From contig JBGUOH010000001.1 of assembly GCA_045117995.1 (NCBI GenBank), positions 746 through 64,745 on the forward strand: a DNA stretch of 64,000 bases, written 5' to 3'. Positions 337 to 35,911 of this stretch are shown in pieces. Below the pieces are notes generated by a model, which worked only from the letters and a program-made list of their open reading frames with translations, was not told the origin of the DNA and searched no databases. Position 1 is the stretch's first letter. Each line of letters begins with the position of its first letter. The translations under genes were made by a program, and so were the position numbers. The DNA is from Bacilli bacterium (GTDB taxonomy: Bacteria > Bacillota_I > Bacilli_A > RFN20 > CAG-826).

Positions 337-2640
337 ATGCAAAACATTTACGAAACATTTGAATTTAATAAAATTAAAGACCATCTCTTAGAATATGCGA
401 AAACAGAACTCGCTAAAGTCTATATTGATGAACTCAGGATGTATGAGAGTCCTGAAGCTGTTAAAAATGCTTTAGAAGATTTAAAAGAAATCAGTTCTAT
501 AATTGTGAGATTTGGTCCTTTACCAATCCATACTTCTGCGAACGCTTTAGTGTTAATTGACTTAGCTAAGAAAACTGGTTTATTAACACCAAGAGATTTA
601 TCTCTTATCGCAGAAGACGTTTTAACCATTGGTAAAATCAGTGCTTTCCTTAAAAAACTAGATAACATGTATCCACGCACTAATGAGATGACCAGTGGTT
701 TTATTGATTTAAGTAACTTAGAAAAAGAGATCCATCGAGTCATCACTAATTCATTAACCATCGCAGATAATGCTTCTCCTGATTTAAACCAAATCCGTAA
801 ATCACTTAAGAAAGCAGAAGCCACTCTTCAATCAAAGATTGCTTCTTTGGCGTTCACATATGGTAAATACTTAAACGATGACAATATCACCATTCGTGAT
901 GGTCACTTTGTCTTACCAGTTAAAACTGTTGATAAAAGCAGAGTCTCTGGTATTGTCTATGACGTCTCCGATAGTGGTAATACCACCTTTATTGAACCTT
1001 TAGAAATCGTCCAAATTAATAACGAGATTACTGCGCTAAAAGTGCAAGAAAATGAAGAGATTAGAAAGATCTTAAAAGCTTTAACTGCTTTAGTGCTCCT
1101 TCAAGAAGGAGAAATCATCACTAATAACAAGATTATTGCGAAACTAGACTTTTTAAGCGCAAAAGCAATGTATGGCAATGAAATCAATGGTGATATCGCG
1201 GAATGCAGTGATAAACAAGAAGTGATATTGGAGTCCGCAAGACACCCATTAATTGATCCAAGAAAAGTCGTTGCTAATTCATACGCTTTAAGCGAAGAAG
1301 AACCAATCATTATTATTTCTGGTCCTAATGCTGGTGGTAAAACAGTCTCACTTAAAACAGTGGGCTTATTGACACTTATGCACCAAGCAGGCTTAATGGT
1401 GCCAGTCCGCCAAGCTAAGATTGGCTATTTTAAACATATATTTATCGATATTGGTGACAACCAATCATTAAGCGATAACTTATCTACCTTCTCCGCCCAT
1501 ATTTCTCAAATTGGTGAAATCATTCACGCAGTAGGTGGTAAAGACTTAGTCTTATTAGATGAACTTGGTACAGGTACTGATCCTAAAGAAGGTGAAGCCC
1601 TCGCCGTGGAAGTCACTAAATACTTAGAAGAGAAACACGCTCTAGCGATGATTTCCTCCCACTTTGCAGCGATGAAGGAGTATGCCTTCTTAAGCAAGAA
1701 CATCGCTAATGCATCAATGATTTTTGATGAAGATAATCTCAAACCAACATATCGTTTTAAACAAGGCGTCCCTGGTAAAAGCTATGCTTTAGAAGTTGCT
1801 TCTAGATATGGAATTGACGCTAAAATCATTGAAAAAGCCCATGCATTCTTAAAGCAAAATGAAACTAACGACGCTAGTGAGCTTTTAGATATTCTCCAAA
1901 AGAAAGTCGAAGAAGCTAATAAATTACAAGATGCTTTAGAACGTCAACAAGCGGATCTCGATAGAAGAGAAAAGAAACTCACTAACGACGAAGAACTCTT
2001 TGAAACCAAGAAAGAAAACATGATGAAAGATGTCAAAGAGGAAAAAGAAGAACTCATCGCTAAAGCGAAGAAAGAAATATCCGACATCATTTCCAAAATG
2101 CATAACTCTGATATGAAAGTTCATGAAGTCATTGAACTTAAAAAGGAACTCGAAGAGTTAGAAGAAAGAGAAGAGGAAGAAGTCTATAACGAAGATATCG
2201 CCGTTAATGACTATGTCACCATCCCAAGTATGAACCTTAATGGTAAAGTCATGAGACTCAAAGGTAATAAAGCCCATATCGTCTCTGACAGTGGCTTCTC
2301 TTTTGATGTTGATAAGAGCAAATTACATAAAGTCAATAAACCAAAAGTGGGTACCACTAAAGTGAAGAAGACTAATTATGATCTCGCTATTAACACTCAT
2401 GTCGGTATTGAACTAAACATGATTGGCATGCATTTAGAAGAAGCTAAGAATGCTTTAATCAAGTATTTAGATAACTGCCGTTTAAAACACTTATCCCAAG
2501 TTCGTATCATCCATGGCTTTGGTAGTGGCGCTCTCCGTAATATGACGAGAGAGTATTTAAATACCCAAAAAGATTTAAGCTATCGCGCTGGTGGAGAACA
2601 CGAAGGTGGTGGAGGTTGCACAGTCGTGCTCTTTAAGTAA
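337..2640 (+). CDS. mutS2: Endonuclease MutS2 (MutS domains, ATPase, C-terminal Smr domain)
   Basis: 767 aa. Walker A GPNAGGKT. MutS signature region and a K/E-rich coiled coil. C-terminal Smr-like end (HGFGSGALR). Typical MutS2 N-terminus. Confidence 0.9.
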   Translation: MQNIYETFEFNKIKDHLLEYAKTELAKVYIDELRMYESPEAVKNALEDLKEISSIIVRFGPLPIHTSANALVLIDLAKKTGLLTPRDLSLIAEDVLTIGKISAFLKKLDNMYPRTNEMTSGFIDLSNLEKEIHRVITNSLTIADNASPDLNQIRKSLKKAEATLQSKIASLAFTYGKYLNDDNITIRDGHFVLPVKTVDKSRVSGIVYDVSDSGNTTFIEPLEIVQINNEITALKVQENEEIRKILKALTALVLLQEGEIITNNKIIAKLDFLSAKAMYGNEINGDIAECSDKQEVILESARHPLIDPRKVVANSYALSEEEPIIIISGPNAGGKTVSLKTVGLLTLMHQAGLMVPVRQAKIGYFKHIFIDIGDNQSLSDNLSTFSAHISQIGEIIHAVGGKDLVLLDELGTGTDPKEGEALAVEVTKYLEEKHALAMISSHFAAMKEYAFLSKNIANASMIFDEDNLKPTYRFKQGVPGKSYALEVASRYGIDAKIIEKAHAFLKQNETNDASELLDILQKKVEEANKLQDALERQQADLDRREKKLTNDEELFETKKENMMKDVKEEKEELIAKAKKEISDIISKMHNSDMKVHEVIELKKELEELEEREEEEVYNEDIAVNDYVTIPSMNLNGKVMRLKGNKAHIVSDSGFSFDVDKSKLHKVNKPKVGTTKVKKTNYDLAINTHVGIELNMIGMHLEEAKNALIKYLDNCRLKHLSQVRIIHGFGSGALRNMTREYLNTQKDLSYRAGGEHEGGGGCTVVLFK

Positions 2641-4391
2641 TGAAAGAGAGAATTAAGTCATGCATTAATAATCTTAAACACCTACCAGGTGTGTATTTGA
2701 TGCATGATAAAGACGATAAAATCATTTATATTGGCAAAGCCAAAGACCTCTATAAAAGAGTAAGCCAATACTTCCTTAGACCACAAGTGGGCAAAGTCGC
2801 TAAGATGGCCTTTGAAGCGGAATACTTTGAAACAATTATTACAAATAATGAAAAAGAAGCGCTCATCCTCGAGATGAACCTCATCCAAACTCATTATCCA
2901 AAATTTAATATCCTTTTGAAGGATGGTAGTCATTATCCATATATCGCCATTAGGAAAACTGGTTATCCATATTTACAAATCAAAAGAAACACCAAAGATA
3001 AGAACTACGATTACTTTGGTCCTTTCCCAAGAAGCAGCTCTGCTTATGAGACAATTGATTTATTAAACAAAATCTTTCCATTAAGGAAATGTAAGAATAT
3101 CCCATCAACAGCGTGCCTATATTATCACTTAGGCCAATGTTTAGCGCCTTGTATCAACGAAGTTTCTAAAGAAAAAGAAGAAGAAATGCGTGAACAAGTG
3201 AAATCCTTTATGCGTGGTAATAACGCTGATGTGAAAAGAGACATTACCGCGAAGATGATGGAAGCCTCTGAAAAGATGGATTATGAGTCTGCAAAAGACT
3301 ATAAAACAGTTTTAGATGCGATAAATCACATCAACATTCAACAGAATGTCGAGACTAATGATAAAAAAGACCGCGATATTTTCGCGTTTTCCACAAGAGA
3401 GGGTTATTTATCGTTAGCGGTCCTTTTGTTCCGTAGAGGGACGCTTTTGGATAAAAAAGTGTACATTGTGGAGGAATTCGATAACAACGAAGAACAAGTC
3501 GCGGATTTGATTTTGCAGTTCTATCAAAATGTGCCATATCCTCAAGAAGTGGTCATCAACAATGAAACGGTCGTGGATTTGCTCTCTGATTTAATTGATC
3601 CTAATGTCTATAGCGTTTCTAAAGGCAAGATTCATGATTTGATATTGACCGCGAAGCAAAACGCGAATAACGCTTTGGACGAATACTTCCTTTCTAGTAA
3701 ACTAGATAGCGATAAACTCGCCTTATTAGAAGAGTTAGGCAATATTTTAAATATTGATACCCCATTAAGAATCGAATTATTTGATAACTCACACTTACAA
3801 GGTTCTTCACCGGTTGGCGCTGCAGTTGTCTTTATTAACGGCGAACCCGCAAAGAAGCTTTACCGTAAATATCATATTGAACATGATGAGGCTAGAGACG
3901 ACTTAAAGAGTATGGAAGAAATAGTGTACCGTCGTTATAAAAGAATGAAAGATGAAGGACAAGCTCTTCCAGATTTAATCTTAGTCGATGGTGGTCTTAA
4001 CCAAATCAAAGCGGCCTCCCTCGCTTTGGCCAAAGCGGATGTCTCAATTAATCTCTTTGGCTTAGTGAAAAATAACAAGCATCAAACCGCTGGGTTGATG
4101 GATATCAATGGAAATGTCTTTGATGTTGAAAACAAGAACATTTTCTTCATGCTTACAAGAATGCAAGATGAAGTCCATCGCTTTGCGATCACCTTCCATC
4201 AATCACTCCGCAATAAGAATATGAAGTCATCATTACTTGATGGCATTAAAGGTCTAGGCTCAAAAAGAAAAGAACTTATCAATAAGGCCTACCCAGATAT
4301 CAATCTATTAAAAGAGGCCACAATTGAAGAGTTAAGTCAGTTACTTCCTAAAGAAGTTGCGGAAGCACTCTATATGAAACTTCGTTATTAA
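2640..4391 (+). CDS. uvrC: Excinuclease ABC subunit C
   Basis: 583 aa. N-terminal GIY-YIG (GVYLMHDKDDKIIYIGKAK...E). UvrBC-interaction region, an RNase H-like endonuclease domain and a C-terminal HhH. Start overlaps the mutS2 stop (TAATG). Confidence 0.9.
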   Translation: MKERIKSCINNLKHLPGVYLMHDKDDKIIYIGKAKDLYKRVSQYFLRPQVGKVAKMAFEAEYFETIITNNEKEALILEMNLIQTHYPKFNILLKDGSHYPYIAIRKTGYPYLQIKRNTKDKNYDYFGPFPRSSSAYETIDLLNKIFPLRKCKNIPSTACLYYHLGQCLAPCINEVSKEKEEEMREQVKSFMRGNNADVKRDITAKMMEASEKMDYESAKDYKTVLDAINHINIQQNVETNDKKDRDIFAFSTREGYLSLAVLLFRRGTLLDKKVYIVEEFDNNEEQVADLILQFYQNVPYPQEVVINNETVVDLLSDLIDPNVYSVSKGKIHDLILTAKQNANNALDEYFLSSKLDSDKLALLEELGNILNIDTPLRIELFDNSHLQGSSPVGAAVVFINGEPAKKLYRKYHIEHDEARDDLKSMEEIVYRRYKRMKDEGQALPDLILVDGGLNQIKAASLALAKADVSINLFGLVKNNKHQTAGLMDINGNVFDVENKNIFFMLTRMQDEVHRFAITFHQSLRNKNMKSSLLDGIKGLGSKRKELINKAYPDINLLKEATIEELSQLLPKEVAEALYMKLRY

Positions 4392-4439
4392 TTGCTTGCA
4401 AACAATCGTAGATTTATTTAATATAATTATCGCTGACAT

Positions 4440-4516
4440 GCGCTTGTAGCTCAGTTGGATAGAGCAACAGCCTTCTAAGCTGTGGGTCAGGCGTTCGAGT
4501 CGCCTCAAGCGTGCCA
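4440..4516 (+). tRNA. tRNA-Arg (anticodon TCT)
   Basis: Cloverleaf folded by hand. Acceptor stem GCGCTTG / CAAGCGT with a terminal G-U pair. D-arm GCTC...GAGC. Anticodon stem ACAGC/GCTGT with loop C-T-TCT-A-A. T-arm AGGCG-TTCGAGT-CGCCT. 3' GCCA is encoded. Confidence 0.85.
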
Positions 4517-4527
4517 TTAGATAAAAT

Positions 4528-4554
4528 ACTGAGTCTCGTGCTCAGTTTTTTATT
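4528..4554 (+). terminator. Rho-independent terminator after the tRNA
   Basis: ACTGAG-tctcgtg-CTCAGT hairpin followed by TTTTTTATTTT. Confidence 0.5.
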
Positions 4555-4589
4555 TTATTCGTGCGTGCGTTTCAATATAATTAGTTTCG

Positions 4590-6257
4590 ATGAAACGTAA
4601 GCTTTTTGTATTTCTATCTGTATTAATCTCACTTACTGCTTGTGGGGAAACGGTTGTCTATAGCCGTAAACACTCATCTAGTAGAACCGAAACCGCTTAT
4701 GTTGTCCCAAGCGAAAGTGGACACACTGCGTCTAGTTCAGTCAAAAGCACTAGTGTTTATTCGACTATGACAGGAACTAGCGTAATATCCACAAGAAGTA
4801 GTAGCACGAGCCATTCATCTTCAGTTAACAATTTCATTGCTTCTAATTCAAAAGCTATCAAAGTATTTGATAAAGATGTCGATCAAAAAGTGCTGAATAA
4901 TTATCTTGTATCTCTTGAGGAATACGATGATCCGACCTTTTATGTTTACAGCAATGGTTATATAAGGCATGGTGATTCAACGTTCAGCTTTTCAGATTAC
5001 ACTGAAACCAGGTCTATTTATATTTATGATGTTAATAATGACAATCGCCGTGATTTTGTGTGGGTAGTGAAAAATCCTTCTTCAAATCTTTATGAGGTTG
5101 TAAGTTATTCAATGACCTATATTCACGGAAATATTCTTAAGGATTTTAAGCGTGGGAACTATTCGTATTTCTTAGAATCCGACGATGAAAATCTATATGT
5201 TAAAGAAACGGTCGGAGCGTTTAATGATACTACAACTGGTTATGGCAGAATTGTTTCTCGAACCATAGCTGGTGACGTTGAATGGTTAAACATTAATGGT
5301 GTTATTGATTTTGGCTTTAAAGTCATGATTGCTAATAAAGAACATACATCAGTTGCGACATGGAAAGACAATGGTGTGACTAAGTTCTTGGGAAATTCAA
5401 ATTGCTATTATCTAGTTGACCTTGTTGTTTTGGCGGAAAATGATTTAACTAATGTTAATCTTCCTATTTCAATAAGCGGCACAATGTCATTTCTACCTGA
5501 ACCCGCTAGAGTTGATGGTCGTTATCGATACACAGTTTATTTCATGAATAGTATTGCTGGTTTTTACCTTGATTTTACAATTTTCGGCATTACCAGACGT
5601 TTACAGTGTGGTGGAACCGATGAAAGTGTTGAAATTACCTGCTTACGTGATTATGTTGATTGGGCAGAAGAATTAGAAACTTATAGCATTGGTGGGCTCG
5701 CTGATGTAGATTGCTCTTCTGCTGAAGAAAGTGGAATTGTTTCAGTTTATGAATATAATGATCAAGATTCTTATGCTAAATTCAAGCAATTCATTCACTA
5801 TACTTTTTATGAAATAGACCCAAATGACTTTGCGATTGAACGTTTACCTCATCGTTACTACCGAGTGTCCATATATAAAGGAGATCAAGGACGCAGCTAT
5901 AAATGTTATTTGTATAACGATCGTTTTATGAAGTGCGATGATAGATGGTTTATATGTGGATTGAAAACTAATATATCTTTTGACACTGAAAAAGCTGCAT
6001 ATTCTTATTTGAGGTTTGATGAAGCTTACAAAACACTTGCTTACTATAAAGTCAGTGATGATACGCGTTCAAGCAGCATCAGCACAGCTAGCTTGTATTT
6101 TAAAGAAACAGGAGAACGTGCCGATATTACCAAACAAAAATATTATTTTGTGATGGGCTCTTCAAAATACTATATTACTGGTGAAAAGACATTTTGTAGT
6201 CAATGGGGCTCCACAACATATACCATCACAACTTCCTTTAAATTCACTTCTTATTAA
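4590..6257 (+). CDS. Lipoprotein, paralog family member 1 (Ser/Thr-rich stalk; degenerate Ca-loop block)
   Basis: Signal peptide with lipobox LTAC. Long S/T-rich low-complexity linker. Block SIYIYDVNNDNRRDFVW is homologous to the DGYRD block of the four downstream paralogs. Confidence 0.7.
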   Translation: MKRKLFVFLSVLISLTACGETVVYSRKHSSSRTETAYVVPSESGHTASSSVKSTSVYSTMTGTSVISTRSSSTSHSSSVNNFIASNSKAIKVFDKDVDQKVLNNYLVSLEEYDDPTFYVYSNGYIRHGDSTFSFSDYTETRSIYIYDVNNDNRRDFVWVVKNPSSNLYEVVSYSMTYIHGNILKDFKRGNYSYFLESDDENLYVKETVGAFNDTTTGYGRIVSRTIAGDVEWLNINGVIDFGFKVMIANKEHTSVATWKDNGVTKFLGNSNCYYLVDLVVLAENDLTNVNLPISISGTMSFLPEPARVDGRYRYTVYFMNSIAGFYLDFTIFGITRRLQCGGTDESVEITCLRDYVDWAEELETYSIGGLADVDCSSAEESGIVSVYEYNDQDSYAKFKQFIHYTFYEIDPNDFAIERLPHRYYRVSIYKGDQGRSYKCYLYNDRFMKCDDRWFICGLKTNISFDTEKAAYSYLRFDEAYKTLAYYKVSDDTRSSSISTASLYFKETGERADITKQKYYFVMGSSKYYITGEKTFCSQWGSTTYTITTSFKFTSY

Positions 6258-6341
6258 TAATTCTTTCTTAGCAGTTTATCTATATAAAATCGTCTAATTA
6301 GTAGAGGAAAGCTAGTTTTTGTTATAGAATATTCACTAATT

Positions 6342-7412
6342 ATGAAAAATGTTAAGAAACTATCAGCATATATATCCTTATTATTTATAACAACTTTTCT
6401 CAGTGGCTGTGGCACTGTTGAACATTATTACTATGCTCGTCCAAGGACTAGCACACGCTACGTGACTGAAACCACCTCTTATGTTACTCCTACATATTCT
6501 TCTGTTTCTTCAAGAAGCAGTTCCTATAGTCAGTCTAACCCTATAGATCCAATTGTAGTGTTTGATAACGGCTTGGATCTATTTAAAGCGGGGTCTAAAG
6601 AGGATTTATTGATATATCTTCCTGAATACGGTGATCAAACAGAATTAATAATCAAAGTTGCTACTAATACTGGCACAACTAAATTAAGCGGAACTGTGTT
6701 TGGCTATGAATATGAGAACACTGAAATTAACCACATTGCTTCTTTGATTCTTTACGATATTAACAATGATGGCTATCGTGATTTTTGTGTGACCACTCAA
6801 ACACGTGGTGTGAACAGAGTTGCTATCTACGATGTTGTGAATTACGAAAGACTTTATTATTTAGAAGCAATCTCTCAGATTAACCCTGATGGCTACTGGT
6901 TTTCTTTAGAAAACAAATCACTAGTGCTTCATCGTGGTTCAAACGTTGATACATTTGATGAAACTAATGACTGGGCCTTTATGAAATACTCTTCAGCAAC
7001 AGGTGTTTATGGCGAATGGTTTAATCATATAGATCTCACTGGCTTTAATCTCAACATCAGAGATGAAAACATGCAAGTGGTACGTTCTTGCAACGTAAAT
7101 GACACCAATCTTCGTTATTCTTTAGTCTTAAATTCATATAAGACCTATTGGTTTTGCATCACGCCTAGTTTTGCTCAGAACACTTGGGCGTCTACTTATC
7201 TAACGGAAACAATTAAAGATTATATCCATTTTGGATTCTGCAATAATGATACCCAATTTAGAAGTGATGCAACTTTAACGCCAAGCGGTATTGAACCAGC
7301 GGAGTTTCCACTTTATTTCGCATACTATGATGTCAGTACATGGGTCTCATACGCAACTATACAAATACTTTGCTCTGGGTACGTGCTAACTCTAGAACTA
7401 TATTTGAACTAA
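6342..7412 (+). CDS. Lipoprotein, paralog family member 2
   Basis: Lipobox LSGCG. S-rich linker. Conserved blocks LILYDINNDGYRDFCVTT and DGYWFSLENKSLVLHRGSNVDTFDET. Confidence 0.75.
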   Translation: MKNVKKLSAYISLLFITTFLSGCGTVEHYYYARPRTSTRYVTETTSYVTPTYSSVSSRSSSYSQSNPIDPIVVFDNGLDLFKAGSKEDLLIYLPEYGDQTELIIKVATNTGTTKLSGTVFGYEYENTEINHIASLILYDINNDGYRDFCVTTQTRGVNRVAIYDVVNYERLYYLEAISQINPDGYWFSLENKSLVLHRGSNVDTFDETNDWAFMKYSSATGVYGEWFNHIDLTGFNLNIRDENMQVVRSCNVNDTNLRYSLVLNSYKTYWFCITPSFAQNTWASTYLTETIKDYIHFGFCNNDTQFRSDATLTPSGIEPAEFPLYFAYYDVSTWVSYATIQILCSGYVLTLELYLN

Positions 7413-7429
7413 CTACAAAGGAGTTAAAT

Positions 7430-8362
7430 ATGAAGAAAGTTAAAAATTTATCAATATTTATTGTATTATCATCAATGCTTGCTTTAAGTGGCTGTGGCAC
7501 AATTTTACACATCACAAAAGCTCCTATTAGTGCGATGACTTGTAGTACCAGAGATGAGATGGTGAGTTTAATCGGAGAAGAAAAAGTTCCTTTGGCTATT
7601 GAAGAGTTTGGTGATAATACCGAACTAACAATTGCGATGGGCAATAATAGCACAACGATTTCTGGTAAATTACAAGGTGAAGACTTCAACTATAAAGTCG
7701 AAGAAGTTCATTCATTTTACTTATTTGACGCTAATAAGGATGGCTATCGTGACCTTTGTTATACAAAAGGAAACACTAATCACAGCGTGACCATCTATGA
7801 TTTAAAAGCACAAAAAGACATCTATTATATTAATGGTTCATTCAATAAAGATGGCTATTGGCTTTCTTTAGAAAATGATAAATTATGGATTCATCGTGAT
7901 AATGGTGGTCAAACCTTCGATGAAACTGTGGATAAAGGTTTCTTCGATTATTACGAAACCCGTGGTGTCTATGTCCGCTGGGATAATTACGCAAAACTAT
8001 CTTACTTTGTGGTGGATGTGGACGATGGTGAATCAAAACATGAGTATATGGTCACAAGTTCTGGAATGATTAATTCTATACAGATGAATTCTTCTAAAAT
8101 ATACACTTTTTGGATCAGACCATTCTTTAGAGACGACACCGCAAAAGTCTCCGAAAAAACAAATACTCATTTCTCTTTGCTAAGCAAAGGGTTCCAAGCG
8201 AAAAGCGAAGGCGAACCTGTAGAAGATGAATTTAATGGTGTTGGTTTTTCAATGAACTTTAACGTTGGTGAGACCGTCAAAGGGAAACAAGCCGTTGATT
8301 TCGAAGTATTGTTATCCGGTTGTTCAACAATTCTCCGAATGCTTTTTGACTACAACAAATAA
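7430..8362 (+). CDS. Lipoprotein, paralog family member 3
   Basis: The ORF-track start at 7340 overlaps the upstream gene. The real start is taken as ATG 7430 (MKKVKNLSIF...), which has an AAGGAG SD 7 nt upstream. Lipobox LSGCG. Blocks YLFDANKDGYRDLCYTK and DGYWLSLENDKLWIHRDNGGQTFDET. Confidence 0.75.
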   Translation: MKKVKNLSIFIVLSSMLALSGCGTILHITKAPISAMTCSTRDEMVSLIGEEKVPLAIEEFGDNTELTIAMGNNSTTISGKLQGEDFNYKVEEVHSFYLFDANKDGYRDLCYTKGNTNHSVTIYDLKAQKDIYYINGSFNKDGYWLSLENDKLWIHRDNGGQTFDETVDKGFFDYYETRGVYVRWDNYAKLSYFVVDVDDGESKHEYMVTSSGMINSIQMNSSKIYTFWIRPFFRDDTAKVSEKTNTHFSLLSKGFQAKSEGEPVEDEFNGVGFSMNFNVGETVKGKQAVDFEVLLSGCSTILRMLFDYNK

Positions 8363-8410
8363 ATTATTTGTAGATAAAGAATAACGTTTGCTTTACAATA
8401 GACATCGGAT

Positions 8411-10105
8411 ATGAAAAAAATCAAGAAATTATCATTATTTATCACATTAGTGACTGTGCCATTTTTAACTGTGGCTTGTGATATGGAATCCCACTACAAA
8501 TATGAAGGTAGTGGTGAACATTCAATTTCATACATCTATACGTCTGTGCCTGGTACCACAAAGGTTCCAACTACCACTTCAAGTGTGACACCAATTTCTA
8601 CCTATAGTTTTGTTGAAACTAATCCAATCATTGATCCTACATTGAAAAATCTTGTTCCTCAAAAGATCTTTGATTGCTATAACGATGGTTATCGTTTAAC
8701 TTCTCCAATCTATTTCGATGCTTATGAATATACTCCAAGTTCCTTCGTGGTGGATACTGATTTGAATATAATTCAAGAAGGCACTAATTACTATTTCGGT
8801 AAAGCTTTAGCGTTATATTTATATGACGCTGATAAAGATGGATACCGTGATTTATGCATGGGCTATACTGAAGGAGAAGATGGCGAAACGAATGACTGTG
8901 TTTCCATTTTCAGCCTAGCGAAAAATAAAGAGATTTATCATCTTTCAGAAGCTGGAATATTAAATAGAGGTGATTATCACTTCTACGCGGACTTTACAGT
9001 GGAAAGAAAACTATATTTACACAAAGATATTCTTAATTCTTCTTTCGAAAAGGAAACTTTGGACATTGGAGAAGTAAGATACTATGACGTAATTGGCATA
9101 ATGATAGAATGGCTGACAACCACTTATACTGGTCCACTTTACTATCGAGGGTTAAGAAATGGTGAGGGCAATCTCATTTCTTATGAAACAGCCCCTAATA
9201 CCAAAGATTTTGTTGACGTTTATGAAGTTAATTTTCATGACGTGTTTGTTTTAAGCTTAGGTGCAAATAGTAATAGTACTGTACCAGCGAGTGAACGTTA
9301 CTCAATTTGTTATCGCACAAAAGAACGTTTTATTAATAAAGTCTATTGTCGTGGAGATCAGACCGGTCTATTTCTCTATTTTTCATTTGACGGCCTTGTC
9401 GATCCTGAATCGTTTTGCGATATAGAAGTTCGTATAGGCAGCGTTGTTGATTATTATAAATTTAGTTTTAAAGATTCAACTGCCCCAACTTCGTTAAGCA
9501 AACTGATTTTCGGAACGTCGGTTTTACCTTCAACATTGGCGACGTACACAGATTATATTTATTGCACCCATGAAAACTATCCTCTTAGAGATATCTACAA
9601 GTGGGATGATCAAAGTACAATGTTAGATTTATCTATTATCGGTATTTATAATGTTTTTCCAATAAACGCTAGTTATTATCCAACTGACACAGATAAAGAA
9701 GAGATCGGCTTTCATATCGAAGGATTTAATGATTATGGTTTCACTTTAGAAAACAAACAATTTATAAATCTATCTGGAAACCGCTACGTTCTTTTCCGAC
9801 CATTTGATTTTATGGAAAGAATGAATACTGCTGAACATTATCTTGGTTTTACAACCATGACTGATATTATTGCTAGGTCAACAACTAATCCATCAGTGTT
9901 AACTGAAATTGATAATGCATCTGAAATTTATTTTAGAGAATTTGATAATGCTGGTTATTATACAAAAGACCATGCTACCCATGTAATTACCATCAGTACA
10001 TATACTTTCTATGTCATCAATAATGGTGTGTTACTCAGTGGTGATGAACTAATTATTTATCGTGTTATTAGTGGTAGTGAAGATTTCTCAATTTTGTACG
10101 AATAA
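8411..10105 (+). CDS. Lipoprotein, paralog family member 4
   Basis: Lipobox TVAC. T/S-rich linker. Block LYLYDADKDGYRDLCMGY. Long, divergent C-terminal region. Confidence 0.7.
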   Translation: MKKIKKLSLFITLVTVPFLTVACDMESHYKYEGSGEHSISYIYTSVPGTTKVPTTTSSVTPISTYSFVETNPIIDPTLKNLVPQKIFDCYNDGYRLTSPIYFDAYEYTPSSFVVDTDLNIIQEGTNYYFGKALALYLYDADKDGYRDLCMGYTEGEDGETNDCVSIFSLAKNKEIYHLSEAGILNRGDYHFYADFTVERKLYLHKDILNSSFEKETLDIGEVRYYDVIGIMIEWLTTTYTGPLYYRGLRNGEGNLISYETAPNTKDFVDVYEVNFHDVFVLSLGANSNSTVPASERYSICYRTKERFINKVYCRGDQTGLFLYFSFDGLVDPESFCDIEVRIGSVVDYYKFSFKDSTAPTSLSKLIFGTSVLPSTLATYTDYIYCTHENYPLRDIYKWDDQSTMLDLSIIGIYNVFPINASYYPTDTDKEEIGFHIEGFNDYGFTLENKQFINLSGNRYVLFRPFDFMERMNTAEHYLGFTTMTDIIARSTTNPSVLTEIDNASEIYFREFDNAGYYTKDHATHVITISTYTFYVINNGVLLSGDELIIYRVISGSEDFSILYE

Positions 10106-10196
10106 AAATTTTAAACTTTTTTAGCAGTTATCTAACTTTTCTTTGTCTAATAAGTGAAAGCAACCTTTATGGTGCTTGCGTTTAGGAGGCAAAGAT

Positions 10197-11765
10197 ATGA
10201 AAAAAAATAAAAGCTTATCAATAATCGCCACCTTTTTATCATTACCTTTATTAGTGGGTTGTGCGGGAGCGACACATAGCTATTATAGTTCTAAACCTCC
10301 ATACACATATGACCCATCATATAATCCAGGAGATAAAATTGATCCAATTAAAGTGTTCGATTATTTTCAAGATGATGGTTATCCAGATCCATTAACTTTT
10401 GAACTAAAAGAATTTATTAATTCTCCATTCGCATTAGATGACAATCAAAACGTCATTGATAATAAAGGTAATATTATTTTAAACGCCGGCGCTGCTTTAT
10501 ATTTATACGATGTCAATAACGATGGATATCGTGATTTTTGTGTGACTAAAGAATCCAAAGTAGGAGACTATAGTACTTCTTTAATCATCCACGACTTAAG
10601 AAATAACTATGAAATTCTTAATTACAAAGAAGAAGGTAGATTCAATTACTTCTTCGAAATTAGAAATAACAATTTAGGTGTTTATAAAACACACGACAAA
10701 TATAACGAAACCCGCTACGGTGAAGGTTTAATTAACTTTACCGCTAAAAACTATATTAAATGGGACAATATCTTTGATATCAAGAGTGTCGATTTCACCT
10801 TTACATATGCTGATGCAAGCCATACGGCAGTGAGTAAGGCTAGAAAGAACAATGATACTTTATACGCAGATGTTGATAGAACAGCAACATACTTAATCGA
10901 ATTAGATGTAAAGAAAAACATTCCAGTAGTCTACCCTGAAGGGTTCTATGATCCTATTTCATTTGTGTGCAATAGTGATGATGTCGTGATCTTTAATCCT
11001 TTAAAAAATAATCCATTTAAATATGCAATTTACTTCCAAGGAAGTGAAGATAGTTTTTCTATCGATATGAACTTCTCTGGTTTTTCTAAAACTTTGAATT
11101 TTGATGTAAAAGCTGATTACATAAGCCCATTCACTAGATTGAAACTAAGTAGTCTTATTGCTTTTGTTTCTCAATTCTCTCTTCCAAATATCGAAGGCAT
11201 TGATGTTAAAGAAGAAAAGCTTGGTACTTTAGCCCCAGAATCTAGTCGTGGTATTGGTACTTTATATCAATTTACTGATGATTCTTACTTATCTTCTCTA
11301 GAAGAATATCTCGATGAGGTACTCTTTGAAGTTAATGAAGATGAATTTGTGAGTGATGATTTAACCGATTACACCTACATCATTAAAACCGATGAAGGTG
11401 ATTATGAATTCATGGGCAAAGATCGTTTCTTCTTTGTGAACGATAGATGCTTCATGGCGAGAAAACCATTAGAGATGAATCGTTTCTCTGCGAGTAACAC
11501 AAGTTACTTCTTTGACAGTGAAGTCTATAGCATCTCTATGGAACCATACGCTGAAGGTACAAGCTCAGCGAGAATCTCTAACCCAGAAGATATTGTCATG
11601 AATAAGAAATTGGCCCTTGATGAAAAGATTATGGATGCGTATTACACATTCGAGCTTAGAGGCGCGAAGTATTACGTGTTAAATAGTAAGAAGTTCATGG
11701 ACGCAAGTGGTCGTTATGTCTACGAGATCATTTCAGACGCTGATTTCTCATCTATTTTTGCTTAA
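10197..11765 (+). CDS. Lipoprotein, paralog family member 5
   Basis: Start taken at ATG 10197 (MKKNKSL...), with an AGGAGG SD 7 nt upstream. Lipobox LVGCAG. Block LYLYDVNNDGYRDFCVTK. Divergent C-terminal half. Confidence 0.7.
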   Translation: MKKNKSLSIIATFLSLPLLVGCAGATHSYYSSKPPYTYDPSYNPGDKIDPIKVFDYFQDDGYPDPLTFELKEFINSPFALDDNQNVIDNKGNIILNAGAALYLYDVNNDGYRDFCVTKESKVGDYSTSLIIHDLRNNYEILNYKEEGRFNYFFEIRNNNLGVYKTHDKYNETRYGEGLINFTAKNYIKWDNIFDIKSVDFTFTYADASHTAVSKARKNNDTLYADVDRTATYLIELDVKKNIPVVYPEGFYDPISFVCNSDDVVIFNPLKNNPFKYAIYFQGSEDSFSIDMNFSGFSKTLNFDVKADYISPFTRLKLSSLIAFVSQFSLPNIEGIDVKEEKLGTLAPESSRGIGTLYQFTDDSYLSSLEEYLDEVLFEVNEDEFVSDDLTDYTYIIKTDEGDYEFMGKDRFFFVNDRCFMARKPLEMNRFSASNTSYFFDSEVYSISMEPYAEGTSSARISNPEDIVMNKKLALDEKIMDAYYTFELRGAKYYVLNSKKFMDASGRYVYEIISDADFSSIFA

Positions 11766-11881
11766 TCCTTATTAATTATATATTTTATAAATTAATTTAT
11801 AGACAAGTATAATGAGTAGTCATATAATTGTTTTTGAAGTGTACTAAGTGTATTAATACAGACACTAGTCAGGAGGCACAT

Positions 11882-14800
11882 ATGCTATCGATTAAAAACC
11901 TCACAAAAATTTATAAAATCAAAGGCGGTAATAACACTGTTGCCTTAGATAAAGTTAATATCGATTTTCCAGAAAAAGGTATGGTTTTCCTTTTAGGTAA
12001 ATCTGGTTCTGGTAAATCTACATTATTAAACCTTATCGGTGGTCTTGATTTCCCAACCGATGGTGAAATTATCTTAAAGGGCAGAAGTAGTAAAGACTTC
12101 TCACAATCAGACTTTGATAGTTATCGTAATACTTATATCGGTTTTATTTTCCAAGAATATAACATTCTTAACGAATTTAATGTTGAACAAAACATCGCGT
12201 TAGCCATTGAACTTCAAGGTAAGAAAGTTACTAAAGAAGCAGTGGATAAGCTTTTAGAACAAGTTGACCTCGTGGGATATGGTAAAAGAAAACCAAATAC
12301 TCTCTCTGGTGGTCAAAAGCAAAGAATCGCGATTGCTAGAGCTTTAATCAAAGAGCCAAACATCATTATGGCGGACGAGCCTACCGGCGCTCTTGATAGT
12401 AAGACCGGTGAACAAGTCTTTGAAACATTAAAGAAATTATCTAGTGATAAACTAGTCATCGTTGTTTCTCACGATAGAGATTTCGCGGAAAGATTTGGTG
12501 ATCGTATCATCGAACTTAAGGATGGTAAGATTCTAAGTGACCAAACCAAACACATGGTGGAATCTACCTCCATTAGTGACAATGTCACTATTATTAATGA
12601 CCATGCGATTAAAATTAACGACGCGAAAAAGTTAACTAAGAAAGATTTTGATAAGTTATATGAATCCATCAAGAACAGCGATGGCAAGGTTTTTATCAGC
12701 AGTGGTGAAAACGCTGATAAGTCAATGAAAGTCGCCCGTATCTCTGATGATGGAAGAAGTGATGAATTTAAAGAAACAGGCGCTATTGAACTCAAACAAT
12801 ATGATGCTTCTAAAACCACATTCATCCGTTCTAAGATGCCAGTTAGTAAATCCACTAAGATGGGTTTAAGTTCTCTTAAAACTAAACCAATCCGTTTAGT
12901 GTTCACAATGTTATTAAGCGTGGTGTCATTCACCATGTTTGGTGTAGCGTCCGCTTTAATGCTTTATAATCCAAATCACACTTATAGTGAAGCTTTAAGT
13001 AAAACTGATTACAAGGCGGAAACATTAAGCAAAAGCGCCACTGGTAAAGATGTTAACCAAACACTCGACGCTGAAGGAAATGTCATTGATGAATGGTCCT
13101 ATTCTTCTCAAGAAGGCCGCCTCTTTGGTGTTAATGAGATTAAAGAGTTAAATAAGAACTCATTAGGTTTAGTCTATATTCCTGTCGGAAGATCCTATAG
13201 CTCCATTAATCTCAAGAGCGCTAATGGCATGACCAAAAACGCTGATTTCTATCGTCGATATTATCAAATCACTAAGCTTTCTGACGCTAGTGAAGAAGAC
13301 TTTAATAGATTAGGTTACCAACTTGATGGTACATTCCCAACCAAAGACAATGAAATTATCGTGGCTAAATCAATCGGTCAAATGCTCGTTGATTCAGGTG
13401 CGGTTAACAAACATAACTACATTGAAACGATTGGTGAAAAAGTCACTATGTCTAGCAAGATGGGTGGAAATAAAGAATTTACCATTACTGGCTATTTTGA
13501 CGCTGGCGATATTGATACTAAATATTTTGATTTAACAAACGAAGACGCCAAATTAACTCCATCAGAAAAAAATGACTTGGAGAATGGTTTAGGTGAATTC
13601 TTCACTAACTCATTTAATTCCGTCGCCTTTGTCACGTCTAAAGCTTTTGATGAAAACGTCGAAGTTAGAGCAAACAACAATCGTAATTATATTGAATCAG
13701 TTTATAGAATGGGCATCTTTCTCGATACCGTTAGTGTGGAAAATATTCCTAATGTCTCTGAATATGGTGATTCTTTCTTCACAGAAAAGACAGTTAACAA
13801 TTACAAAAATGAATTTGTTATCTATGATAAAGATGGCAATGTAATCGAAAATTTCTCCATTAAAGACGATGAGATTTACATTCCAAAAGATAGTTACGAT
13901 AATATCGCTTATCAAGTGAGAGATTCATTTTATGAATCATTGCTTAATCTTGAGATTAGATACTATAGTCCTGTATTGAAATTCATGCCAACTTACTACG
14001 CGTTCTGTTCAAACGATGATAACTATGAAGAACTCATTGCTTTAAGAAACTACTACTATGTTTCTAAAGAAATGGCTCGCGAATTCTTAAAAGATTACGT
14101 TGATGAATACGCTAGAGCATACAAGATTAATTTATTCCTTAGCGAATACATCGATACCCCTAGTTTCAATGCTTTACCAAGTGAAAAGCAAACTTTATTA
14201 AGACAAGTCAATATCGCTAATCCTGGTGAGATCACAAACGAACAAGTTCAAGAAGTTTATAACATTCTTGATACATACGCTGATAACGCTGATGCTTGTC
14301 CTAATTTCTTACCATACTTATATCTACAACAAGCATCTAATGATGAGATCTTTGGTAAGAAGATTTTTGACGACACCGTCTTATCAAATGCTTTATCTAG
14401 TGATTACAAATCGTGGTCAGAATCTACCATCCAAGCCGTTACTAATTTCTTGAATGAGAATTGTAAGAAAGGCTTAACTCGTGGTTATAAGAACTGGGTG
14501 AATATCATGAAAGGTTTCACCTTCAAAGACTTTGAACCTGCTGGTGATGCTGTATTAAAAGCGGATGCTGATCTTGTTTATTACTATGCTTCATTTAATG
14601 GCACAAAAGGTACTTTAAATATTGCTGGTTACTACGTATGCAATCAAAACGCTTGGGCGGAATTAGTTTCAGAAAACTTCTTGTTAACTAATACCAAGGC
14701 TCAAGACAATGGTAATGGAAACACTTATCGTTCCTTCTTCCTGACTGATTATGAAGAAATCGAAGATGCTAGATACGATAGTGTGATGGTTAAAACCGAT

Positions 14801-15313
14801 TATACTGAAGAACAAATTGCGCAAATGTTCAAATGTACCGCTAAAGCGTGCAAGTATGATTTCAATAGCCAAAAGTATCAAAGTGTAAGCTTCATCGTTT
14901 CCATGATTAATGTCTTGAAACAAGTCTTCTTCTGGATTGGTGTGGGCTTCGGTGTCTTCGCGGCATTGATGTTCCTTAACTTCATCACTGTCTCCATTGC
15001 CTCTAAGCAAAAAGATATTGGTATCTTACGCGCTATCGGCGCAAGAAAGAGTGATGTCTTCAAGATTTTCTTCTCGGAATCATTATTTATTGCCACCGTT
15101 TGTACAGTCTTAGCGTTGATATTTACCTTTGTCGCAGAGTTCTTCTTAGATCGATACTTTGTTTCAGAAATTGGTATCTCAGTCTTGCAGTTCAGCTTTA
15201 TTACTGTTGGACTAGTCATGGCGGTCTCATTATTCATCGCGTTAATCGCAACATTTATTCCGGTCTTGCATTCATCTAAGAAGCCTCCAGTCGAATCGAT
15301 TAGAGCGTTATAA
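11882..15313 (+). CDS. MacB/FtsX-type ABC transporter, fused ATPase and permease with a large extracytoplasmic domain
   Basis: Start at ATG 11882, after an AGGAGG SD. Walker A GKSGSGKST, signature LSGGQKQRIAIARAL and Walker B IIMADEPTGALD. A TM helix near residue 360, then ~650 aa of extracytoplasmic sequence, then a C-terminal FtsX-like 3-TM bundle. Confidence 0.8.
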   Translation: MLSIKNLTKIYKIKGGNNTVALDKVNIDFPEKGMVFLLGKSGSGKSTLLNLIGGLDFPTDGEIILKGRSSKDFSQSDFDSYRNTYIGFIFQEYNILNEFNVEQNIALAIELQGKKVTKEAVDKLLEQVDLVGYGKRKPNTLSGGQKQRIAIARALIKEPNIIMADEPTGALDSKTGEQVFETLKKLSSDKLVIVVSHDRDFAERFGDRIIELKDGKILSDQTKHMVESTSISDNVTIINDHAIKINDAKKLTKKDFDKLYESIKNSDGKVFISSGENADKSMKVARISDDGRSDEFKETGAIELKQYDASKTTFIRSKMPVSKSTKMGLSSLKTKPIRLVFTMLLSVVSFTMFGVASALMLYNPNHTYSEALSKTDYKAETLSKSATGKDVNQTLDAEGNVIDEWSYSSQEGRLFGVNEIKELNKNSLGLVYIPVGRSYSSINLKSANGMTKNADFYRRYYQITKLSDASEEDFNRLGYQLDGTFPTKDNEIIVAKSIGQMLVDSGAVNKHNYIETIGEKVTMSSKMGGNKEFTITGYFDAGDIDTKYFDLTNEDAKLTPSEKNDLENGLGEFFTNSFNSVAFVTSKAFDENVEVRANNNRNYIESVYRMGIFLDTVSVENIPNVSEYGDSFFTEKTVNNYKNEFVIYDKDGNVIENFSIKDDEIYIPKDSYDNIAYQVRDSFYESLLNLEIRYYSPVLKFMPTYYAFCSNDDNYEELIALRNYYYVSKEMAREFLKDYVDEYARAYKINLFLSEYIDTPSFNALPSEKQTLLRQVNIANPGEITNEQVQEVYNILDTYADNADACPNFLPYLYLQQASNDEIFGKKIFDDTVLSNALSSDYKSWSESTIQAVTNFLNENCKKGLTRGYKNWVNIMKGFTFKDFEPAGDAVLKADADLVYYYASFNGTKGTLNIAGYYVCNQNAWAELVSENFLLTNTKAQDNGNGNTYRSFFLTDYEEIEDARYDSVMVKTDYTEEQIAQMFKCTAKACKYDFNSQKYQSVSFIVSMINVLKQVFFWIGVGFGVFAALMFLNFITVSIASKQKDIGILRAIGARKSDVFKIFFSESLFIATVCTVLALIFTFVAEFFLDRYFVSEIGISVLQFSFITVGLVMAVSLFIALIATFIPVLHSSKKPPVESIRAL

Positions 15314-15350: not shown

Positions 15351-15415
15351 TTCTAGTGTTGAAATTAATTAATGGCTTCTATAAAATAGAACTAACGAAG
15401 AAAAGGAATTTTATT

Positions 15416-16912
15416 ATGAAATGCAAGAAATTTTTAATGCTTTCAGCTGTTTTAGCCCTTTCACTTTGTGCCTGTAAAGGTAATGGTGAAAACGGTGGCA
15501 AATCAAGTGAAAGTAAACAAACTCCTGATGTTGCTCCAACAATGAACCTCAAATTCGATGAACTTACTGATGAGGATACCGCCTGTGTTCCTTCATACGT
15601 CAAAGCATACATCGATGCGATGAAAGAGCAAGAAACAAGGATTTCTCACCCAGACCGTGTTGACCACTTATTCTGTGAAATGTCATGGGAACAAGCCGCT
15701 AAACTTGGCGATAAGGGTGATGGCGCTACATATAGTAGCTCTCAAAAAGGTGGCGTTGACGTTTGTGAAATGTTAAGCCGTAGTCAATCCTATGAAAATA
15801 AACCAGTCGAACTCAAATGGGAAAAAGAAGACAAAGACTTCTCTGACGCTAAAGTTGTCTTCTGGTCAAAATTAGACAAGAGTGACAAGCGTGAAGTCGC
15901 TGTTGATGCCAGTGGTGAAAAAGCTTCCGCTAAATTACCAAACCTCTTCATTAATACAGCTTACTACTATCAAGTAGTTAAAGGTGAAGAAGCTTCCCAA
16001 ATGGGTGACTTTGTCACAGGTGACTATTCCAGAATGATCACAATGGGCAAGATTTCTAACGTCCGTGATATGGGTGGCCATACAACATCTTATGGTGTTC
16101 AAACAAATCAAGGCTTAATCTTCCGTGGTGGTGAAATTGCTCCTAAAGCCTTCTCCGATGGTGGTAACAGCCACTCCGCTAACTGGACAGGCAAAGATGC
16201 CGAAGCCGGCCAAAAGGTCCAAGAAGAAGTTCTCAATATCGGTCTTGAATTAGACTTAAGAACAAAATCAGGTTCTGGTTCCATGACCAAATCCGAATTA
16301 AACTGGCAAGGTGAATGGAAACAAGAAAATAAGAACCCATCTTTAGCCTCTGTTGCTGAAGCTGGTAACGTCGATGGCAAAGCCCAATACGTTAGATGCT
16401 CTATCAACTCTTACGATTCATTCATTACTGATCAAAACAGAAAGAGTGAAGCAGACAACGCTAATAGAGACCTTGTCGTTGAAATCTTTGATTACTTAGC
16501 TAACGCTGATAAACAACACGTATTTTTCCACTGCTGGGGTGGTGCTGATAGAACTGGTGTTACTGGTTTCTTACTCAACGCTATCTGTGGTGTCAGTTAC
16601 ACTGATGCAATCATCGACTTCGAATTAACAACCTTAACAAATAATAAGAGATGCCATATGCATAACTCTCAAAACGCTCACTTCCCAAAATTCTTAAACT
16701 TATTCACAAGTAGTTATGAATTTGAAAGAAACGGCGAAAAATTCACCTATACATTCGAAGAAGATAAGACTTTAAGACATAACGCTGATAACTTACTCCT
16801 CGCTATGGGCGTTAAACAAGAAACACTCGAAAAGATTCGTGGCATTATGCTTCCAGGTTATGCTGAAGGCAAATTAACCGAAAACGAAAGAGAAAATAAA
16901 GGCTGGCAATAA
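15416..16912 (+). CDS. Lipoprotein with a tyrosine-phosphatase-like (Cys-based CX5R, Y_phosphatase3-like) domain
   Basis: Start taken at ATG 15416 (MKCKKFLMLSAVLALSLCACKG), a signal peptide with a probable lipobox. Active-site-like loop HCWGGADRTG (C-x5-R followed by TG), matching the P-loop of Cys-dependent protein/lipid phosphatases. Confidence 0.6.
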   Translation: MKCKKFLMLSAVLALSLCACKGNGENGGKSSESKQTPDVAPTMNLKFDELTDEDTACVPSYVKAYIDAMKEQETRISHPDRVDHLFCEMSWEQAAKLGDKGDGATYSSSQKGGVDVCEMLSRSQSYENKPVELKWEKEDKDFSDAKVVFWSKLDKSDKREVAVDASGEKASAKLPNLFINTAYYYQVVKGEEASQMGDFVTGDYSRMITMGKISNVRDMGGHTTSYGVQTNQGLIFRGGEIAPKAFSDGGNSHSANWTGKDAEAGQKVQEEVLNIGLELDLRTKSGSGSMTKSELNWQGEWKQENKNPSLASVAEAGNVDGKAQYVRCSINSYDSFITDQNRKSEADNANRDLVVEIFDYLANADKQHVFFHCWGGADRTGVTGFLLNAICGVSYTDAIIDFELTTLTNNKRCHMHNSQNAHFPKFLNLFTSSYEFERNGEKFTYTFEEDKTLRHNADNLLLAMGVKQETLEKIRGIMLPGYAEGKLTENERENKGWQ

Positions 16913-16982: not shown

Positions 16983-17300
16983 ATGTATATGAACGAAAAA
17001 CCTAACAATAATGTTGAACTAACAGAAAAAGAGATCAAAGAACAAAAAATAGTTGAAAAAGAAAACAAGCTTTTAAGATTTTTGCTTCCAATCGTCGGTG
17101 GTATTGCCTTCATCCTTGGCTTATTGGGCTTTATTTTGACCATTGGTGAAGGAAAACCAGGTATTACCGTTTTCTATATTATCCTCTTTGTTTTAGGCCT
17201 TTTAGGGGTTCTTTATGGAGTCTTATTAATTATCCGTAAGAAAAAACCTGATTTCCTAAAAATCAAAAAGGTCGAAAAAGAAGATACAATTCTCGATTAG
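16983..17300 (+). CDS. Small membrane protein (two predicted TM helices), unknown function
   Basis: 105 aa. Charged N-terminus, two hydrophobic helices (LLPIVGGIAFILGLLGFIL and VFYIILFVLGLLGVLYGVLLII), and a K-rich C-terminus. Confidence 0.45.
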   Translation: MYMNEKPNNNVELTEKEIKEQKIVEKENKLLRFLLPIVGGIAFILGLLGFILTIGEGKPGITVFYIILFVLGLLGVLYGVLLIIRKKKPDFLKIKKVEKEDTILD

Positions 17301-18370: not shown

Positions 18371-18515
18371 ATTCCTATCTTAACACAGCCAAATAAAAAT
18401 GCTCTTATTTTTAGTTACAAAAAATAATTATTAGTGTATGATACTAGTGTTAATTAAATTAATCCCCCAACATCCATAATGTTTTTTGTCTAAAAAATGA
18501 CAAAGAGAGGTTAAT

Positions 18516-32146: not shown

Positions 32147-32152
32147 AATTAA

Positions 32153-34962: not shown

Positions 34963-34985
34963 TTTTAGGAAAAATTTCAATTTAG

Positions 34986-35888: not shown

Positions 35889-35911
35889 TATTAAAAATGT
35901 GTAAAATTGAG

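Follow-up and report, generated by a model that had tools for sequence, protein, structure and literature searches.

A conserved tandem array of five lipoprotein genes sharing a head domain with an FG-GAP-type loop in a ruminant-gut Bacilli bacterium

Five lipoprotein genes follow each other on the + strand of a 64,000-nucleotide (nt) stretch of contig JBGUOH010000001.1 (assembly GCA_045117995.1) from a Bacilli bacterium, downstream of a tRNA-Arg gene. The whole stretch is denoted here as the window, and the genes, together termed the array, as m1 to m5. The first gene, m1 (4590-6257), encodes a lipoprotein of 555 amino acids (aa) with the lipobox LTAC and a long Ser/Thr-rich linker, and is the polymorphic member. 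It is followed by m2 (6342-7412; 356 aa, lipobox LSGC), which consists of a head domain and a beta-sandwich only and is the nearest paralog of m3 (7430-8362; 310 aa, lipobox LSGC). m4 (8411-10105; 564 aa, lipobox TVAC) and m5 (10197-11765; 522 aa, lipobox LVGC) show a three-domain form, m5 being the slowest-evolving member. The starts of m3 (7430, MKKVKNL) and m5 (10197, MKKNKSL) are preceded by the Shine-Dalgarno sequences aaggag and aggagg, respectively, and agree with gene calls in related contigs; a longer open reading frame (ORF) called mechanically from 7340 is not the m3 gene, and for m5 the mechanical ORF list had given 10176. Ahead of m1, m2, and m4 no obvious Shine-Dalgarno sequence is found.

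In a first-pass annotation made from the sequence letters, the locus had been described as five co-directional lipoprotein genes behind a tRNA-Arg gene, encoding proteins of 310 to 564 aa with low mutual identity, and this description holds. The ORFs are present, and the Gram-positive-type lipobox pattern occurs in all five proteins and in just two other ORFs of the window; a gene for the lipoprotein signal peptidase Lsp (Peptidase_A8) is located about 2 kb upstream of the window start in contigs of the same species. In the alignments, m1 is 20-25% identical to the other members, and the head domains share 26-41% identity with that of m2. The Ser/Thr-rich stalks attributed to all members are only partly recovered: Ser and Thr make up 52% of the 60 residues following the lipobox Cys in m1 (strong) and 32% in m2 and m4 (moderate), but 22% in m3 and 13% in m5 (weak).

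A sharply conserved block is present in all five proteins, as had been noticed at first sight, and is confirmed by alignments at the protein and at the DNA level (64-81% identity across 47 nt). Its residues D, D, R, and D are invariant; the consensus of m2 to m5 is D-[IAV]-[ND]-[NK]-D-G-Y-R-D-[FL]-C, and m1 of the window reads DVNNDNRRDF. The degenerate m1 motif is real, but peculiar to the allele of this strain, since all other m1 alleles have an intact motif (DIDDDGYRDF, DIDGDGYRDF or DINGDGYRDF). The spacing is that of an FG-GAP-type Ca2+ loop, as initially suspected, and aligns column for column with DINGDGHED of the Xanthomonas protein X-Tfi (XAC2610), to which we return below. A second block, DGYW[FL]SLEN...H-R...TFDET, was correctly recognized as common to m2 (6888-6965) and m3 (7850-7927), with 71% nt identity.

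The assumption that only the metal-binding loop is kept, on the other hand, does not stand. The whole all-beta head domain of about 150 aa that carries the loop is homologous across m1 to m5, and m1, m4, and m5 have in addition a common C-terminal domain of about 200 aa. The head domains, all + strand, comprise 4851-5306 in m1 (residues 88-239; motif DVNNDNRRD at 5028-5054), 6546-7040 in m2 (DINNDGYRD at 6756-6782), 7565-8002 in m3 (DANKDGYRD at 7727-7753), 8633-9178 in m4 (DADKDGYRD at 8825-8851), and 10341-10784 in m5 (DVNNDGYRD at 10509-10535, followed by the hairpin loop SKVGDYS). AlphaFold2 models were built from alignments of the relatives found with the head profile (see below). For m5 (mean predicted local distance difference test score 82.8, predicted template modelling score 0.73), the model shows a disordered stretch (1-39), the all-beta head (about 50-190), a beta-sandwich (about 195-305), and a mixed alpha/beta domain (about 315-522); for m2 (69.7 and 0.70, respectively), it shows the head and then a beta-sandwich. 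Each protein contains one FG-GAP-type motif, and the models display a single beta domain of about 150 aa plus the beta-sandwich, not a closed propeller. It is firmly established that the five genes represent a lipoprotein family with a conserved multi-domain architecture that carries no family name.

A word-indexed homologue search with all five queries returned just m1-type proteins, and the family became visible by an exhaustive search of the head profile (about 150 residues) against 1.84 billion representative proteins, which yielded 337 proteins at E <= 1e-3 and 60 at E <= 1e-10. The core group of relatives consists of lipoproteins of about 500-560 aa with the three-part layout of m1, m4, and m5, whose C-terminal domain ends in a conserved ...Y-x-I-x-S-x-x-x-F-S-x-L-F. 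Short forms of 300-355 aa lack this last domain, as do m2 and m3. More distant relatives are membrane-anchored and harbor two to four head copies in tandem, and a weakly matching group comprises giant FG-GAP/VCBS proteins, in which the match is confined to the motif. Seven of the membrane-anchored tandem-head proteins (P0021, P0026, P0027, P0033, P0035, P0038, P0040) share a conserved cytoplasmic N-terminus, ...D-I-F-E-A-L-T-D-I-D-D-x-L-I.... Among 60 distant domain-bearing relatives scanned with Pfam, the head is fused to Peptidase_M23 in four and to a BlaR1-type Peptidase_M56 in four, which points to a cell-envelope theme; the tandem-head and M23/M56-fused relatives look like envelope sensors or hydrolases using the same domain.

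Searches of Pfam and NCBIfam with the five proteins gave sub-threshold matches only, in line with the initial failure to assign a named family, and no family member that was looked up bears a name. The FG-GAP_3 model matches m1, m2, and m5 at E 0.01-0.02, with 16-17 bits against a cut-off of 26.9. With the FG-GAP and FG-GAP_3 families (PF01839, PF13517) the array proteins have the Ca2+-loop consensus and the flanking strands in common; FG-GAP propellers, however, are made of about seven blades, whereas the array proteins have one motif each. The NCBIfam family XAC2610_fam (NF047539) matches m2 with 14.7 bits against a cut-off of 35 (E 0.033) and none of the other four, and Pfam PliI (PF16743) matches none of the five at E <= 1. 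Among the 60 distant relatives, FG-GAP_3 is found in 44, FG-GAP in 30, and PliI in 17 at E <= 1e-3 (best E 1.2e-6); the two PliI-matching relatives that are listed individually reach 18.6-21.5 bits against a cut-off of 27.

Profile searches of the PDB gave one significant match, and this with all three family profiles: the structure of X-Tfi (4qtq_A), at E 1.5e-4 with the head profile of the five paralogs, 5.9e-4 with a head profile of 33 sequences, and 1.2e-3 with a full-length family profile. The alignment runs from the strand ahead of the Ca loop through this loop and the one behind it to the strand that comes next. A comparison by hhalign of the family profile with an X-Tfi fragment, used as a single sequence because this 75-residue fragment yielded two homologues only, gave a probability of 88% and E 3e-6 for the part that begins with the Ca loop and includes the loop and the strand behind it. 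Integrin alpha-V, BBS2, YesW/YesX, and ITFG2 are matched through the FG-GAP motif only, a broader head profile reaches PliI (3od9) at E 0.44, and searches for similar folds based on the m5 model gave no informative match. Three independent lines, each of them weak, thus place the head in a group of small FG-GAP-like domains that includes X-Tfi, PliI, and Tsi1, and on this sequence evidence a distant relationship to the group appears highly likely. An origin from phages or defence systems is rejected, since PADLOC and PHROGs gave nothing for the five proteins and a scan of IMG/VR no relatives.

X-Tfi is the immunity lipoprotein of X-Tfe, a lysozyme-like effector of the type IV secretion system of Xanthomonas citri (PDB 4QTQ; NCBIfam NF047539). 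It harbors a lipobox, and residues 151-159 bind Ca2+ in the crystal structure, while the loop 165-173, in which Y170 lies, reaches the active site of the enzyme according to a prediction; the exchange Y170A compromises inhibition (PMC10933484). This loop is topologically equivalent to the inhibitory loops in the complexes of PliI, the periplasmic inhibitor of i-type lysozymes (PF16743; 3OD9/4PJ2), and Tsi1, an immunity protein of the type VI secretion system (3VPJ), and X-Tfi, PliI-Ah, and Tsi1 share a common topology at negligible sequence identity (PMC10933484). The array proteins resemble X-Tfi in the lipobox, the D-x-N-x-D-G-x-x-D loop, the hairpin loop, and a strand ending in Y/F-D. X-Tfi, however, is a single-domain protein of 267 residues in a Gram-negative periplasm, its gene is located beside that of the effector, and its inhibitory Tyr is part of G-K-E-G-N-Y-G-G-P, whereas the array proteins are 310-564 aa long, consist of two or three domains, stem from a Bacillota relative, have no adjoining effector, and differ in the loop from paralog to paralog.

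It is this segment, following ...DGYRDFC-x-T and aligned with the inhibitory loop of X-Tfi, that differs in length and sequence among the five paralogs: KNPSSN in m1, TQTRGVNR in m2, KGNTNHS in m3, EGEDGETNDC in m4, and KESKVGDYSTS in m5. Inside orthogroups it is conserved, e.g. the Tyr of m5-type proteins, which is found at +12 from the last Asp in m5, P0008, P0011, and P0013 (Y170 of X-Tfi is at +11); among the five paralogs, a Tyr near the loop tip is kept just in the m5 type. The m5 model presents the segment as a hairpin (120-126), with confidence below that of the neighbouring residues. About half of the wider family has G-S-G at +8 to +10 from the last Asp. As far as the sequences tell, the loop pattern would fit paralog-specific binding surfaces.

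Variation between strains was followed in ten ENA/Logan contigs from the same or closely related populations; scans of JGI metagenomes with a peptide pattern and with a DNA pattern of the conserved 5' part of m1 gave no match. The proteins flanking the array are at least 99.3% identical in contigs with the 99% and 82% m1 alleles (the downstream ABC protein is 98.6% identical in contig L010), and the flanking genes show ratios of nonsynonymous to synonymous substitution rates (dN/dS) of 0.01-0.04. The strain variability expected by the first-pass annotation is restricted to parts of the array. It is found for the m1 alleles and for gene content in L010, but m2 to m5 keep an identity of 96-99.7% in nine of the ten contigs, and their dN/dS values (0.06-0.20) indicate purifying selection; the few substitutions affect mostly linkers and signal peptides, and hardly any fall into the m2 and m3 heads.

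The m1 alleles, by contrast with such near-invariance, show identities of 99, 82, 81, and 50% inside the species, and of 40% in the more distant contig L009. Compared with the P0002 allele, found in nine contigs, m1 of the window shows a low nt identity (62-72%) only at about 4700-5300, i.e. in the stalk and head, and 94-100% thereafter. In the P0004 allele, a head of the P0002 type is joined to a divergent remainder. The divergent blocks have a synonymous divergence (dS) of 1.1-1.4 against a background of about 0.1, and dN/dS is about 0.25-0.3; the m1 head of the window sits inside such a block (4698-5300, dS 1.1-1.4 to other strains). Gene-wide positive selection was not found, all dN/dS values being below 0.45. 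Judged by these comparisons, m1 comprises old allele classes moved by homologous recombination, and is not a gene drifting by fast point mutation. In L010, divergent blocks occur in m2 and m4 as well, and a sixth paralog is located between m1 and m2 (2011-3081 of that contig; P0036-like, 356 aa, motif DVNEDGFRD). It is 89% identical to a gene that follows the m1-like gene in L009 (2004-3071) and is absent from the window, which represents a gene-content polymorphism within the array. An apparent truncation of m3 in L004 (12412-12511) and a split m5 in L010 (7606-7705) are scaffold gaps of 100 N and not pseudogenes.

Parts of the array are present in L009 and in three further contigs, L015, L025, and L026. 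In L025, which belongs to another species, gene order and the link to the ABC gene are preserved: an m2-like gene (43% identity), an m4-like gene (48%), an m5-like gene (67%), and the ABC gene (62%) follow each other, and no separate m3-type gene is present between the m2-like and the m4-like gene; L026 contains an m4-like (49%) and an m5-like gene (74%). L015 is syntenic downstream (Y_phosphatase3 71%, MscS 79%) and harbors one family member, most like m5 at 29% identity, and no ABC gene. These orthologs imply that the paralog types predate the species. Evolutionary rates differ among the members, m5 being the slowest and m2 fast, and m3 is probably a lineage-specific copy of m2. The dN/dS values of m2 to m5 together with the maintenance of paralog types across species argue for distinct, maintained paralog functions.

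The array is part of the core chromosome, and its left border is formed by the tRNA-Arg(TCT) gene (4440-4516, + strand; ARAGORN and Rfam), which is preceded by mutS2 and uvrC and which is also found ahead of the m1-like gene in the distant locus L009. It is directly followed by a terminator-like hairpin (4528-4546, + strand), and no further terminator-like site is found between this hairpin and the end of m5. The best promoter-like site, a strong one, is located at 11800-11828, between m5 and the gene forming the right border. The latter (11828-15313, + strand) encodes a fused ATP-binding cassette (ABC) ATPase and FtsX-type permease of 1161 aa, with Pfam ABC_tran at residues 40-186 and FtsX at 1038-1154; the middle region of about 650 aa has no Pfam match and is presumably extracytoplasmic, so that the topology would be MacB-like. 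This ABC-FtsX gene is found directly 3' of the array in every same-species contig that reaches that far.

The proximity to a tRNA gene had been regarded as consistent with accessory DNA, an interpretation that the surroundings do not support. No integrase gene is present near the array (the closest gene of the phage-integrase family is about 49 kb away, 60440-61315), an att-like repeat of the tRNA 3' end was not found, and the G+C content of the array (0.32-0.36) shows no break towards the flanks (0.34-0.38). As the array occurs in all ten related contigs and its position is kept in relatives, a tRNA-integrated island is ruled out. Phase variation is likewise rejected: scans of 4300-12000 with TRF and for direct and inverted repeats and promoters revealed no homopolymer tracts, tandem repeats or invertible segments, and hence no switching device. 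Mollicutes harbor multigene families of variable lipoproteins, such as Vsp, Vlp, Vsa, and Vpma, which the array resembles in its tandem lipoprotein paralogs, its origin from a low-GC relative of the Bacilli, its low-complexity linkers, and the differences between strains. In contrast to these families, it has no promoter homopolymers, site-specific invertase, recombination sites or in-frame tandem repeats, and its paralogs are old (20-30% identity) and individually conserved. It is firmly established that the array is old and chromosomally fixed, and neither a mobile island nor a phase-variable system.

Downstream of the ABC-FtsX gene follow genes for a Y_phosphatase3 lipoprotein, an Mbeg1-like protein, two RimK-like ATP-grasp proteins, and MscS, and then housekeeping genes. 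The Y_phosphatase3-family protein with its lipoprotein signal is encoded at 15356-16912 (lipobox start 15416), and in L015 two tandem Y_phosphatase3 paralogs (71% and 37% identical) directly follow the single family member. The region 17297-20155 contains the Mbeg1-like gene on the - strand and two overlapping RimK-like ORFs (18516-19379 and 19322-20155), an arrangement that is also kept in L015. Three ORFs of the window match no Pfam family at E <= 1e-5, namely those of 904 aa (40884-43598), 304 aa (26896-27810), and, with a lipobox, 220 aa (45235-45897). Two leader elements were detected, a T-box leader upstream of valS (32150-32336, 111.5 bits) and an L21 leader upstream of rplU (35957-36029, 38.5 bits, just over the gathering threshold). 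The integrase-family gene at 60440-61315 is of the XerC/D type and lies near a gene (62618-63331) for a 237-aa protein, in which a PemK/MazF-like toxin domain (residues 96-188) follows an N-terminal extension of about 95 aa. The 24 long ORFs of the window end in TAA (21), TGA (2), and TAG (1).

The uncultured organism was found just in ruminant-gut metagenome assemblies. Its valyl-tRNA synthetase (ValS) is 77% identical to that of an 'Erysipelotrichaceae bacterium' metagenome-assembled genome (MAG) and 73-75% to those of 'Bacilli bacterium' MAGs, and the relatives of the lipoprotein family in genome collections stem from rumen and horse-gut MAGs with the same labels. The idea of a wall-less bacterium close to the Acholeplasmataceae, voiced in the first-pass annotation, can therefore only be a tentative one. 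The region 34962-37064 of the window contains valS, a small ORF with a transmembrane segment, radC, the L21 leader, rplU, a ysxB-like gene, rpmA, and obg. Bacillus subtilis shows the same order with mreB/C/D and minC/D between radC and rplU, and these genes are absent from that position in the window, a hint, though no proof, that the machinery for cell shape or the cell wall is reduced. No mur, pbp or mre gene turned up in Pfam scans of the window and the flanks in relatives, but the portion of the genome covered is too small for this absence to carry weight. For related uncultured orders, walled as well as wall-less families have been predicted (PMC10868615).

The following model of array function is proposed. 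After cleavage by Lsp, each protein would be lipid-anchored by its N-terminal Cys, and a flexible linker, Ser/Thr-rich in m1, m2, and m4, would carry the all-beta head at the cell surface. The D-x-N-x-D-G-Y-R-D loop most likely binds Ca2+ and stiffens the head scaffold, and the hairpin loop after this site, by its alignment to the inhibitory loop of X-Tfi, would serve as the binding loop. Each paralog would then represent a tethered head with a specificity of its own and the array a standing battery of five specificities, m1 being the member whose head is exchanged between strains through homologous recombination. Its targets would most probably be secreted lytic enzymes of the host, of competitors or of predators, such as a lysozyme or some other hydrolase of peptidoglycan, or else a similar hydrolase or toxin. 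The genes, the lipoboxes, the shared domains, the remote homology, the synteny, and the allele mosaics are demonstrated here, while the binding of Ca2+, the exposure at the surface, and the binding or inhibition of enzymes are properties that we infer. The interpretation as tethered protein-binding or enzyme-inhibiting heads of different specificity draws on the homology to X-Tfi, the paralog-specific loop, the fusions to M23 and BlaR1-type modules, and the arms-race-like signal of the m1 head alleles (mosaic, dS 1.1-1.4 against about 0.1, and one allele type in nine contigs). It is put forward tentatively, as the best candidate among several and at somewhat less than even odds.

Several observations weigh against it. 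No toxin or hydrolase gene adjoins the array, and the similarity of the head to the X-Tfi group, as measured by profile comparisons, is weak. The proteins have two to four times the size of PliI, X-Tfi, and Tsi1 and contain extra domains without recognizable relatives, and none of the five has the G-S-G that about half of the wider family carries in the loop. Furthermore, the organism is possibly wall-less, and in a cell without peptidoglycan the protection of its own wall could not be the role of the heads. A more far-reaching version of the inhibitor proposal, for which the prospects are rather doubtful, regards the array proteins as the first surface-tethered multi-domain relatives of the PliI/X-Tfi/Tsi1 fold in the Bacillota-Mollicutes lineage, neutralizing lytic enzymes of the rumen. 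Five, in some strains six, Ca2+-stabilized inhibitor heads would then act against lysozymes of ciliates or the host, toxins of competitors, and tail lysins of phages; an arms race at m1 would explain the replacement of its head between strains, and the domain, which in Clostridia is fused to BlaR1-type and M23 modules, would be a general recognition module for lytic enzymes.

The main rival to the binder or inhibitor proposal is a role as adhesins or variable surface antigens, whose heads bind host, feed-particle or microbial surfaces and whose diversity would result from immune, phage or predator pressure on exposed epitopes and not from enzyme inhibition. Adhesion proteins, e.g. integrins, often contain FG-GAP modules, m1 is highly polymorphic and mosaic, and the sixth paralog of L010 shows that gene content varies. 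The related uncultured order RFN20 is reportedly devoid of sortases (PMC10868615), so that lipoproteins would be the main surface proteins if the organism belongs to this order. The array had indeed been likened at the outset to a variable antigen repertoire. This comparison is not supported, however, by the near-invariance of m2 to m5 in most strains, with the heads as their most conserved part, by purifying selection and the lack of switching machinery, or by paralog types that are older than the species and persist across species; nor do the proteins match any adhesin family. A role in adhesion or antigenicity is regarded as possible, yet rather unlikely.

Still less probable is a function as extracytoplasmic partners or cargo of the MacB-like ABC-FtsX protein, in which the lipoproteins would capture substrates for, or regulate, a mechanotransmission transporter, or would be released or positioned by it. 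The constant position of the transporter gene behind the array in the same-species contigs that are long enough, its adjacency in L025 even though the ABC protein is 62% and m2 43% identical there, and the lack of a terminator-like site inside the array speak for such a partnership; the strong promoter-like site at 11800-11828 would separate the two, and the L015 member, like members in other genomes, has no such neighbour. Binding of carbohydrates or other small ligands for nutrient capture, by a Ca2+-loop beta domain akin to the blades of lyase or lectin propellers, would suit the rumen habitat and the matches of the wider head profile to the PL11 lyases YesW and YesX and other Ca2+-binding propellers, but is very improbable, since these matches span just the 30-residue FG-GAP motif, Pfam and NCBIfam scans detect no carbohydrate-binding module, solute-binding protein or glycoside-hydrolase family, and no genes for sugar transport or carbohydrate-active enzymes are found nearby.

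Tandem lipoprotein families and FG-GAP-type Ca loops are already familiar; what is new is the family itself, its architecture, and the mosaic polymorphism of m1, and probably also the membership of proteins from a Bacillota relative in the PliI/X-Tfi/Tsi1 fold group. Whatever its function, the array defines an unnamed family with a head domain that occurs singly, in tandem or fused to envelope sensors and M23 peptidases, and it offers a clear case of allele replacement at one surface-protein gene within a species. Should the proteins simply act as adhesins or antigens, the array would be a lipoprotein gene family of a common type in a gut bacterium resembling Mollicutes. Proteinaceous inhibitors of lysozymes and other peptidoglycan hydrolases have so far been known mainly as periplasmic proteins of Gram-negative bacteria. 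If the heads of the array bind or inhibit lytic enzymes, such inhibitors would be extended into uncultured gut Bacilli, and, should inhibition prove true, they would provide a molecular handle on the resistance of rumen bacteria to predation and competition.

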